Virus record (IMG/VR): IMGVR_UViG_2690316131_000019
Source of the DNA: a virus
Taxonomy: Duplodnaviria > Heunggongvirae > Uroviricota > Caudoviricetes
Length of the DNA: 12,426 nucleotides
Reading direction: 5' to 3' (one strand)
Part shown: positions 2,556 through 12,426 of the stretch, one piece after another
Position numbering within the stretch: position 1 is the stretch's first letter
How the letters are laid out: each line of letters begins with the position of its first letter
Program-made: the position numbers and the translations under genes
Notes under the pieces: generated by a model
What the model was told of the DNA's origin: nothing
The model's database searches: none
The model's input: the letters and a program-made list of their open reading frames with translations, nothing else

Positions 2556-2987
2556 CTATTCAGGTATTTCAATTCCAAAACCATCTGCATCCCATGAGTT
2601 TTCACAGATGATGTAACCTAGTTCATTGAGCTTATTAAATGTTTTTTCAAAGATGATCTGGTAATCATTATCTGCAAGTGATTCCAGTTCAAGGTCATTA
2701 AGGTTTATATAAAAACTTGTATGTCCAAGTGTTATTTTCTTATTAATTTCATTAAAGGTTCTTTTGAAAATAATATTTGATATTTCATGTCGTGCATTGT
2801 TTGCAATGATTTTTGCTTCATAAGCAGAAATTACGTCATCTTCATGAATATCTTTCAGAAAGCTGGTGTCAAGACGTTGTACTATTTCAGCGTTCATTGA
2901 TCGCTTATTGGCTTTTGCAGAAATTTCTATTTTTTCTTTTACTTCGACGGGAAGTCTGATCCTTAGTTGTGGATCTTCTCTGCTCAT
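2556..2987 (-). CDS. mnt: Mnt-like ribbon-helix-helix repressor with an extended C-terminal domain
   Basis: N-terminal segment MSREDPQLRIRLPVEVKEKIEISAKANKRSMNAEIVQRL matches the Arc/Mnt RHH signature (recalled P22 Mnt: DDPHFNFRMPMEVREKLKFRAEANGRSMNSELLQIV). Preferred start is the ATG at 2987, preceded by GGTGAAG; the ORF track extends to 3017. Product is 143 aa, against about 82 aa for P22 Mnt. Confidence 0.65.
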   Translation of the reverse strand: MSREDPQLRIRLPVEVKEKIEISAKANKRSMNAEIVQRLDTSFLKDIHEDDVISAYEAKIIANNARHEISNIIFKRTFNEINKKITLGHTSFYINLNDLELESLADNDYQIIFEKTFNKLNELGYIICENSWDADGFGIEIPE

Positions 2988-3024: not shown

Positions 3025-3072
3025 AGTATGCCTCACCGTGTGCTTGACATCAATGACGCACGGTGTGACAAT
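3025..3072. promoter_or_regulatory. Divergent, overlapping sigma70 promoters (Pant-like on +, Pmnt-like on -) with CACGGTG/CACCGTG operator-like repeats
   Basis: Plus strand: TTGACA (3044-3049), 17-bp spacer, TGT-GACAAT extended -10 (3064-3072). Minus strand: TTGATG (rc of 3048-3053), 17 bp, CATACT (rc of 3025-3030). The 7-mer CACGGTG or its complement occurs at 3034-3040 (inverted), 3060-3066, 3083-3089 and 3288-3294. Confidence 0.45.
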
Positions 3073-3107
3073 TATTTTGCCCCACGGTGGGGCTAAGGAG
3101 ATATGAA

Positions 3108-3275
3108 ATGCAAAAAGCAAAAGAGATGTGTCAACGACGAGTTCGTTTTCCGGACGATGTGAAGTTAGCTATTGAAAGAAATGGCGAAAAAGAATGCCGA
3201 AAGTTCAATACAGAGATTATCTATCAGCTGAGGAAAGTGTATGGACTCACTGGTGAGAAGAATAGCGTGGCATAA
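3108..3275 (+). CDS. arc: Arc-like ribbon-helix-helix repressor
   Basis: 55-codon ORF with AGGAG (3096-3100) 7 nt before the ATG at 3108. Sequence QRRVRFPDDVKLAIERNGEKECRKFNTEIIYQLRKVYG has the Arc-type beta-strand/helix pattern (recalled P22 Arc: FNLRWPREVLDLVRKVAEENGRSVNSEIYQRV). Divergent from the mnt-like gene and directly upstream of the ant-like gene, as in P22 immI. Confidence 0.6.
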   Translation: MQKAKEMCQRRVRFPDDVKLAIERNGEKECRKFNTEIIYQLRKVYGLTGEKNSVA

Positions 3276-3347
3276 AACAGCGAAGCCCCACGGTGGCCAG
3301 ACCGTCAGGGCTTCAGTATCGTAAAACTACGTATAGGAATTAACGAC
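3272..3347 (-). ncRNA. sar: Candidate sar-like antisense RNA covering the ant ribosome-binding site
   Basis: Minus-strand promoter inside the 5' end of ant: TTGATA (rc of 3377-3382), 17-bp spacer, TATACT (rc of 3354-3359), predicting a start near 3347. Minus-strand terminator hairpin (stem 3282-3288 / 3308-3314) followed by GCUGUUUUAU in the arc-ant spacer. Predicted ~75-nt transcript is antisense to the ant SD (AGGAA 3335-3339); by recollection P22 sar is about 69 nt and similarly placed. Confidence 0.4.
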
Positions 3348-4286
3348 ATGACGAGTATAGCAACAGCAGTATCTACTATCAACGTGCCATTCCACGGCGC
3401 AGAGCTTTATGTTGTCAATCACAACGGCGAACCGTATACCCCAATGAAACCTATCGTTGAGGGAATGGGGCTAGACTGGAAATCTCAACATAAGAAGATT
3501 TCTCAACGCTTCTCGAAGGGTATGGTGGAAATCACCATACCTTCTGCCGGTGGGGGGCAAGCCATGATTTGTATGGCTTTACGAAAATTGGCAGCTTGGT
3601 TGAACAGCATCAGCCCTAACAAAGTCCGCCCTGAAATCCGCGACAAGGTAATCCAGTATCAGGAAGAGTGTGACGATGTGCTCTACGAGTACTGGACTAA
3701 AGGCCATGTGGTTAACCCACGCAAAGCTAAAAAGGCGTTGCCGGGTAAAATAACAACTGAACAGCAGGAAGCCATTAAACAACTCGTCATGAGTCGCGGT
3801 CAGTCTCTGCCAAAAGAAAAACAGGCTAAGGCGATGATCACCATGTGGTCGTCACTGAAATCTCATTTTGGCTGTTCGTACAAAGAAATTGGTGAAGATC
3901 AATTTGCCGAAGCGTTGTCTCTTGTTGCTCGGGTTCCGCTTGAAGGGGAGTATCTCCCTGCTGGATCTGCATCAGAGAATGATGAAGTGGCAGTCAAGAT
4001 GTTAGATGCGCTTCGTGAGGCAATTAAAACACAGACAAAATGTTATGGTTATCCATTGAAGCCAGGCTACCGCAGTCTGATTCATTCGCCGTCGGGTGTT
4101 CTCGGCCTGACGGAGAACTCACTGCTGATGAATCTGCTGAACCAGTTACAGGAAGACGGGCACGACGTATCGGGCGCGGCGGCGGAGCTGACCACCATGT
4201 TCTGCTACATCGTCGGTGTGAGCAAATGCCTGCGTGATATCCAGACGCACGCGGAGTACATCAACGACAAGGCTGGGTTCTTCTGA
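3348..4286 (+). CDS. ant: Phage antirepressor (P22 Ant-like: N-terminal Ant domain plus conserved C-terminal module)
   Basis: 312-codon ORF with AGGAA SD 8 nt upstream of the ATG. N-terminus (SIATAVSTINVPFHGAELYVVNHNGEPYTPMKPIVEGMGLDW) resembles P22 Ant-type antirepressor N-domains. Lies downstream of arc as in P22. The C-terminal ~78 aa are nearly identical to the C-terminus of the 5460..6170 product. Confidence 0.7.
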   Translation: MTSIATAVSTINVPFHGAELYVVNHNGEPYTPMKPIVEGMGLDWKSQHKKISQRFSKGMVEITIPSAGGGQAMICMALRKLAAWLNSISPNKVRPEIRDKVIQYQEECDDVLYEYWTKGHVVNPRKAKKALPGKITTEQQEAIKQLVMSRGQSLPKEKQAKAMITMWSSLKSHFGCSYKEIGEDQFAEALSLVARVPLEGEYLPAGSASENDEVAVKMLDALREAIKTQTKCYGYPLKPGYRSLIHSPSGVLGLTENSLLMNLLNQLQEDGHDVSGAAAELTTMFCYIVGVSKCLRDIQTHAEYINDKAGFF

Positions 4287-11910: not shown

Positions 11911-12426
11911 TTAGCTCTTTTCAGGACATTTAGTATTTGGCTGAATACGCGTTTCGTTATACGTTGTGGTAATAACAACGGCTAAACCTGTCGTAAACTG
12001 GCACTCTTTACCCACCTGGGTAGAGGTATACACTTTGGTGCCTTCCTTATATGTTAAAGAAACACCTTCCACTAAGGTTTTATCATTCACCATAGAACCC
12101 ACTGCCGCGCCTACAGCTCCGCCGCCAACTGCCCCTGCCGTCGTTCCGGAATTGCTGCCAGAACCGACGTTGTGGCCGATAACACCGCCAGCGACTGCGC
12201 CAATAAGCGCGCCGAAGGCTTGTGCGTTCCGTTTATTTTGGGAGTTGTCTACGGCAACTTTTGCGGGAAGAATGGAAATAATATTAACGGTTTTAGTTTC
12301 TTGTTTGGTATTCAGTTGATCGGTTTGATAAACATCGGCGGCATGATCGTCAGCATTTGACTGGCATCCTGCCAGAGTGAATGACGCTAACATTGCCACA
12401 GGCAGAAGACATTTTTTAAATTTCAT
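11911..12426 (-). CDS. Outer-membrane lipoprotein of the glycine-zipper (SlyB/Pcp, YcfJ-like) family
   Basis: Lipobox (LASFTLAGC) and a central Gly-zipper (GALIGAVAGGVIGHNVGSG...GAVGGGAVGAAVGS) closely resembling recalled E. coli YcfJ (GSVLGAVAGGVIGHQFGGG) and SlyB. The start codon is the last three bases of the window. Confidence 0.6.
   Translation of the reverse strand: MKFKKCLLPVAMLASFTLAGCQSNADDHAADVYQTDQLNTKQETKTVNIISILPAKVAVDNSQNKRNAQAFGALIGAVAGGVIGHNVGSGSNSGTTAGAVGGGAVGAAVGSMVNDKTLVEGVSLTYKEGTKVYTSTQVGKECQFTTGLAVVITTTYNETRIQPNTKCPEKS

Follow-up and report, generated by a model that had tools for sequence, protein, structure and literature searches.

Three predicted Mnt-type operators in a P22 immI-type control region of Escherichia coli and related prophages

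From our analysis of a stretch of 12,426 nucleotides of prophage DNA (the window), we consider it quite probable that the region 3025-3295 is a control region of the P22 immI type with three Mnt-type operators (O1, O2 and O3), and that a fourth copy of the motif in the same region is not a conserved operator. The Arc and Mnt proteins of P22 are textbook models of DNA recognition by beta-sheet proteins, and, to our knowledge, the operators of P22 are the only Arc/Mnt operators to have been studied; our literature search found no binding or transcription results for any member of the Mnt-like family described here. This family occurs in at least 59 distinct loci of Enterobacterales prophages, in which the Mnt core appears to have been multiplied into a three-site array, the promoter pair rearranged, and the array paired with an Arc-like protein that lacks a P22-type operator. 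The features of the three-site family therefore constitute natural variation for testing how residues read bases and how an antirepressor switch could work with a single operator type. In practice the gain is modest: antirepressor control could be better annotated in the prophages of E. coli and in related ones.

The antirepressor module and its genes

The window is the right end of an E. coli prophage, with the integrase gene at 12375. Over the 821 bases around the control region it is 99.6% identical to Escherichia phage TL-2011b; among 5426 complete E. coli genomes, 36 have prophages that match it at 95-100% identity. Open reading frames and domain matches place a mnt-like gene and the arc-like and ant genes divergently around a common promoter region, with the same order and orientation of genes as annotated for P22 immI (NC_002371), and the module is accordingly annotated here as a putative P22-type immI antirepressor module.

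The mnt-like repressor gene (2556-2987, minus strand; 143 aa) coincides with a RefSeq CDS at the same coordinates. Its product matches the Pfam Arc domain PF03869 at residues 2-46 (E 1.1e-14) and phrog_1388 over its full length, its RHH domain aligns with that of P22 Mnt without gaps, and the family profile matches the 1mnt and 1arq chains. The protein consists of an N-terminal RHH domain, with the arm and strand MSREDPQLRIRLP, followed by a C-terminal domain of about 100 aa without assigned function. In TL-2011b (L001), one extra C at about 4421, corresponding to window position 2960, causes a frameshift near codon 9 of the mnt-like gene, of which a 114-aa remnant is all that RefSeq annotates; this is either a sequencing error or a phage with a broken maintenance repressor.

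The arc-like gene (3108-3275, plus strand) encodes 55 aa with the beta-strand CQRRVRFP. In hhalign, the Arc-like protein aligns with P22 Arc without gaps over residues 4-39, with a probability of 63% and an E of 7e-5. Its PHROG match is to family 228, ‘Arc-like repressor’ (E 3e-5); several of its homologues are named Arc family by NCBI, and a Pfam search gave no match at E <= 0.1. A PDB search was made with an input alignment that contained P22 Arc, and its outcome is hence not independent evidence.

Downstream, a sar-like antisense RNA (3279-3346, minus strand) was detected with Rfam RF00262 at 44.8 bits, against a gathering score of 43. Its sequence is complementary to the spacer between arc and ant and to the ribosome-binding site of ant, and its predicted fold has two hairpins with a U-tract after the second. 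The ant antirepressor gene (3348-4286, plus strand; 312 aa) carries the Pfam domain P22_AR_N (E 8e-45) and matches PHROG 524/245, ‘anti-repressor Ant’. Its start is annotated differently by RefSeq (PGAP), at GTG 3384, and by the TL-2011b annotation and P22 ant homology, at ATG 3348. A Psar-like promoter (3354-3382, minus strand; TTGATA, 17 bp, TATACT), scored by the promoter scan at 10/12 plus TG, has its hexamers (3382-3377 and 3359-3354) between these two candidate starts; its position equals that annotated for P22 Psar, which lies inside the first ant codons.

Promoters and operators

Two predicted promoters are directed away from the space between the mnt-like and arc-like genes. The Pant-like promoter (3044-3072, plus strand) has TTGACA at 3044-3049, a 17-bp spacer and a TG-extended GACAAT at 3067-3072; it was called by the scan (10/12 plus TG) and is kept in relatives. 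The predicted Pmnt-like promoter (3025-3053, minus strand) has TTGATG at 3053-3048, a 17-bp spacer and CATACT at 3030-3025. It matches the consensus at 8/12 positions only and was not called by the scan, but relatives across genera have CATAAT(T) at the place of its -10 element, next to an mnt 5' untranslated region that is not conserved; the Pmnt-like promoter is thus supported by the retention of CATAAT at the same place. The original prediction of two promoters therefore stands by scan for the plus strand and by conservation for the minus strand, and the overlap of the two -35 hexamers that it described is found at 3044-3053. Its description of the pair as face-to-face has to be reversed, since transcription proceeds outward from the pair, without overlap between the transcripts; the arrangement is back-to-back, i.e., divergent.

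The window has exactly four copies of the 7-mer CACGGTG or its complement, at 3034-3040 (minus strand), 3059-3065, 3083-3089 and 3289-3295, so that all four originally reported copies are present and all fall within the region. Four copies anywhere in the window were obtained in 7 of 200 shuffles, and three copies within 60 bp in none of 5000. The three promoter-proximal copies lie in sites of the 15-bp pattern G-N-C-N-CAC-S-GTG-N-G-N-C, whose centres in the window are 25 and 24 bp apart. O1 (3030-3044; GCCTCACCGTGTGCT) occupies the Pmnt spacer and reaches the Pant -35 hexamer; its flanks are degenerate in the lineage of the window, the consensus among relatives being GCCCCACSGTGGGGT. O2 (3055-3069; GACGCACGGTGTGAC) is within the Pant spacer and 2 bp away from the Pmnt -35 hexamer, and O3 (3079-3093; GCCCCACGGTGGGGC) is a perfect 15-bp palindrome. 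The flanks of O2 are GACG...TGAC, as against GCCC...GGGC for O1 and O3, and the TG-extended -10 element is an additional constraint on its right flank. As a side observation, the O1 flanks GCCT...TGCT (GCCC...GGGT in relatives) and the Arc-like strand CQRRVRFP (YQRKVRFP in relatives) are both restricted to the lineage of the window, i.e., the two changes co-occur in a single lineage.

The P22 Mnt operator as annotated (NC_002371; AGGTCCACGGTGGACCT, 14828-14844) begins 7-8 bp past the Pant -10 element, and it resembles O3 in having the nine-base core CCACGGTGG at the same distance after that element; only the outer bases differ, GGT in P22 and GCC here. O3 is thus the counterpart of the P22 Mnt operator in position and in sequence. 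A P22-type Arc operator (21 bp, located within the Pant spacer and containing TAGA half-sites) is absent from the window; where P22 has ATGATAGAAGCACTCTACTAT, the Pant spacer of the window holds O2, which bears no similarity to it. The operators had originally been held to differ from both P22 operators and possibly to represent a distinct specificity. The difference holds for the Arc operator, as no TAGA-type site is present, and is contradicted for the Mnt operator by the shared core; with only the outer bases differing, the proposal of a distinct specificity is not borne out.

We then compared the geometry of the two regions, with transcription starts inferred from the hexamers alone and assumed to lie about 7 nt past each -10 element; the predicted starts are then at about 3079 for Pant, about 3018 for Pmnt and about 3347 for Psar. 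On these starts, O3 is centred at about +7 of Pant and spans about +1 to +15 (P22 Mnt operator, about +8), O2 lies at about -17.5 of Pant (P22 Arc operator, about -20) and at about -44 of Pmnt (P22 Mnt operator, about -45), and O1 lies at about -19 of Pmnt (P22 Arc operator, about -17). The predicted starts are about 61 bp apart in the window and about 37 bp apart in P22, where either operator, the single Mnt one or the single Arc one, can act on both promoters. The difference of 24 bp is the same as the O2-O3 spacing, and three sites of the same kind would therefore fill the four positional roles.

Conservation of the three-site array

Mnt-like homologues are common in Enterobacterales (more than 260 clusters), and the arm and strand are invariant in 29 homologues of 58-69% overall identity. 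For the comparison of upstream regions, loci were chosen on the Mnt-like protein alone, 25 from species-representative genomes and 80 from IMG/VR; together with the window, these 106 loci gave 70 distinct upstream regions, of which 59 formed the main group. Besides IMG/VR, the source genera were Kluyvera, Yersinia, Citrobacter, Xenorhabdus, Pantoea, Morganella, Proteus, Raoultella, and others. Among the distinct regions of the main group, the CAC-S-GTG core was intact at O1 in 55 of 59, at O2 in all 59 and at O3 in 55 of 59, with the consensus sites GCCCCACSGTGGGGT, GACGCACGGTGTGAC and GCCYCACSGTGRGGC, respectively. The O2 15-mer was identical in 54 of 59 regions and its centre base was G in 58, while G and C at the centre were divided 37:18 at O1 and 40:15 at O3; such flips at O1 and O3 are what a palindromic protein site would lead one to expect. 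The O1-O2 distance was 25 bp in all regions but one (L078, 24 bp), and the O2-O3 distance was 24, 26 or 27 bp in the main group. The mnt leader and the stretch from the Pant -10 element to O3 had almost no information content. The retention of cores and spacing in 59 distinct loci, while the neighbouring sequence drifts, supports the prediction that the three promoter-proximal motifs act as operators of a repressor pair of the Arc/Mnt RHH type. The conservation expected for the CACGGTG repeats in related loci thus holds for the three promoter-proximal copies (59 loci) and not for the fourth.

Loci of Xenorhabdus and Serratia in which the Mnt-like protein is shorter and an Arc-like gene is missing nevertheless retain three CTCACSGTGAG sites, and two or three CACSGTG sites occur with more distant RHH pairs (Acinetobacter, Pseudorhodoferax, Giesbergeria, and Rhizobium). 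The core would therefore be a general operator core of the Mnt clade, whereas the three-site array appears to be the hallmark of this Mnt-like family.

Several loci bear signs of rearrangement within the array. In one IMG/VR locus (L071), O1 and O3 are fused into one site upstream of the mnt-like gene, and a deletion of about 51 bp has removed both -35 hexamers, O2 and the Pant -10 element; the deletion looks like recombination between repeated operators. Four further loci, of Xenorhabdus and one from IMG/VR (L007, L014, L015, and L096), have an O3 with an O2-type right flank and a second GACAAT, an apparent tandem duplication of about 26 bp (O2 and the -10 element). One of them, in Xenorhabdus bakwenae (L014), has an O3 15-mer that is an exact copy of O2.

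The fourth CACGGTG and the 12-bp repeat

The original prediction included a 12-bp direct repeat on either side of arc as a part of the system. The 12-mer GCCCCACGGTGG does occur before arc at 3079-3090, and its second copy is at 3285-3296, one base further on than first reported (3284-3295). The second copy and the fourth CACGGTG (3289-3295) are contained in the sar terminator hairpin (3282-3314; GAAGCCCCACGGTGGCCAGACCGTCAGGGCTTC), as had been suspected and as the Rfam match and the fold agree. From about 3271-3274 onward, the sar-ant block is homologous to 113 other E. coli genomes; the terminator and the second 12-mer therefore lie in a block of other ancestry than the operators. In P22 and most others the sar terminator has the variant GAAGCCCCAACTGCGGTAACAGTCAGGGCTTC. 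The terminator of E. coli A41 (GAAGCCCAACGGTGGCTAGACCGTCAGGGCTTC, variant GCCCAACGGTGG) matches 11 of the 12 bases of the 12-mer, in a locus where ant is controlled by a LexA-family protein and where the upstream region inspected beside the LexA-family regulator gene has no CACGGTG.

Base 3289 is polymorphic, being C in 11 of 17 near-identical IMG/VR loci (10 and the window) and A in the other 6. Among the 36 complete E. coli genomes with the module, 20 are identical over 3262-3316 (CAC) and 16 are not; all six of the latter that were checked have A at 3289 (AAC), and the cores of the three promoter sites are kept in genomes with this allele. The fourth copy was found in none of more than 55 more distant relatives, and sar scored above threshold in none of the eight distant relatives tested. 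The conserved +5 and +7 bases are missing from the right half of the fourth site, and the C allele of 3289 adds a G-U pair to the terminator stem. The most likely explanation of the second 12-mer and the fourth CACGGTG is coincidence, arising from a pre-existing terminator variant and one substitution. With its second copy in the sar-ant module, polymorphic at 3289 and unconserved, the direct repeat does not count among the conserved elements of the system. An exact 12-mer match within about 250 bp is nevertheless improbable under a uniform model, so the fourth site may have a weak auxiliary role.

Proposed control and alternative explanations

According to PMC11016777, the P22 system relies on repression of arc and ant by Mnt, on Arc to inhibit mnt and to moderate ant, and on the binding of sar to ant mRNA. 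By analogy, the two sigma-70 promoters of the window would run rightward from Pant into the arc-like and ant genes and leftward from Pmnt into the mnt-like gene. The Mnt-like RHH repressor would bind O1, O2 and O3 in the manner of P22 Mnt at its one operator, which has the same core; at O2 and O3 it would shut off arc-ant in the lysogen, and at O1 it would autoregulate the mnt-like gene. The Arc-like protein, made from Pant, would most likely feed back on the same array, and sar RNA from Psar would pair with the ant ribosome-binding region. We infer binding of the array by the Mnt-like protein with good support, because of the homology to P22 Mnt and its operator, the invariant reading head, and the arrays kept in loci without an Arc-like gene.

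It could be argued that the four copies form one operator set of new specificity in which the 12-mer pair around arc is functional, for instance because a repressor loops the DNA from O3 to the sar terminator, or forms a roadblock ahead of ant. The 12-mer identity is exact, a search with the operator pattern (up to two mismatches) finds 3285-3299 among six matches in the window where 1.48 are expected, and a multi-domain Mnt-like protein could bridge distant sites. We nevertheless regard a four-site set as unlikely: the specificity is not new, as the core equals that of the P22 Mnt operator, and the fourth site has an incomplete right half, is AAC in a large share of near-identical prophages, is missing from all other relatives and sits in a sar-ant module of different ancestry, where the G-U pair gained by the C allele offers an alternative reason for its presence. 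Far less credible is that the palindromes act in RNA, as 5' stem-loops or terminators, and not as protein-binding DNA. Although the arc-ant mRNA would begin with a 6-bp G+C hairpin formed by O3, and the fourth copy is demonstrably in an RNA terminator hairpin, O1 and O2 lie between the predicted starts, where neither promoter would transcribe them, O2 makes a poor hairpin, and the same core is annotated in P22 as an experimentally defined protein operator. A third alternative retains three DNA operators and divides them as in P22, with O2 bound by the Arc-like protein only and O1 and O3 by the Mnt-like protein only. O2 lies in the exact place of the P22 Arc operator, between the -35 and -10 elements of Pant, has flanks of its own, and is identical in 54 of 59 regions with a centre base that hardly flips (58:1). 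The middle site is, however, of the outer-site type in loci without an Arc-like gene, the O3 of Xenorhabdus bakwenae copies O2 exactly, O2 of a Citrobacter locus (L005) has an O3-type left flank beside an ordinary Arc-like protein, and the TG-extended -10 element also constrains the right flank of O2. A strict division of this kind is possible but rather doubtful.

A tentative proposal for the roles of the two proteins on the three-operator array is that both, having a Gln-Arg/Lys-Arg reading strand, read the same three sites, and that the switch works through competition, timing and oligomeric state and not through site discrimination. If true, the two operator specificities of P22 would have collapsed into one. 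In the alignment, the DNA-facing strand residues Q9, R11 and R13 of the Arc-like protein (K11 in most relatives) are equivalent to Q6, R8 and R10 of the Mnt-like protein, and this match is in favour of shared sites; in distant RHH pairs, too, there is a tendency for the partner to have a matching triad, and in two loci both proteins have Q-K-R. Nevertheless, the strand of phage L Mnt equals that of P22 Arc (PQFNLR), yet its upstream palindrome has a CCAC core, and the core therefore seems tied to the xR(D/E)DP arm. This arm accompanies the CCAC core in every Mnt relative examined and is lacking in the Arc-like protein, which may therefore read something else within the conserved block. O2 would be the best Arc-like candidate because of its place at that of the P22 Arc operator, its unusual invariance and its asymmetry.

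We also observed that the strand triad tracks the operator flank. From a comparison of phages L, SE1 and Gally (L113-L115), P22 (L002), O1-O3 of the window, and the loci L017, L019, L024, and L026, Q-N-R goes with AGA (AAGAC-CAC), H-N-R with GGT (AGGTC-CAC), Q-R-R with GCC (TGCCC-CAC) and Q-K-R with GGA or GAA (TGGAC-CAC, TGAAC-CAC), while the xR(D/E)DP arm and the CCAC core are constant across Mnt relatives. The AGA flank of Q-N-R is found in the P22 Arc half-site TAGA as well. Conceivably, this is a simple recognition code for the RHH clade, a possibility that is based on five groups only.

Comparison with P22 and other known systems

The module resembles P22 immI in its RHH repressors on either side of a divergent promoter pair, its sar by Rfam, its Psar in the first ant codons and its Ant with a P22_AR_N domain. 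It differs in several respects. P22 has one Mnt operator and one unrelated Arc operator where the window has three operators of the same core; the P22 promoters overlap almost completely (14793-14821 and 14798-14826), whereas only the -35 hexamers overlap in the window; and the strand triad is H-N-R in P22 Mnt and Q-R-R in the Mnt-like protein. The latter ends in an unrelated domain of about 100 aa in place of the short tetramerisation tail of P22 Mnt, and the P22 Mnt-type C-terminal coiled-coil tetramerisation domain (about residues 50-82) was looked for in it and is absent. Unlike in P22 immI, the block of the mnt-like gene, operators and arc-like gene differs in ancestry from the block of sar and ant.

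The Mnt proteins of the P22-like phages L, SE1, ST64T and Gally have the xR(D/E)DP arm and the RHH fold, as in the window, but are 82-83 aa long with the triad Q-N-R and the flank AGA. Upstream, phages L, SE1 and Gally have a palindrome with a CCACSGTGG core (AAGACCACCGTGGTCTT), at one site only, and phages L and SE1 have no arc, sar or ant, unlike the window. A further likeness is to the lambdoid operators OR1-3 between PR and PRM, where three spaced sites of the same kind lie across two divergent promoters, a layout that permits graded repression and autoregulation. The lambdoid sites are 17 bp long, differently spaced, unrelated in sequence and bound by helix-turn-helix repressors, so the likeness is one of logic and not of homology. 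In essence, the operator array is best seen as a known Mnt operator core in a widespread, predicted three-operator variant of P22 immI, and not as a new kind of system.
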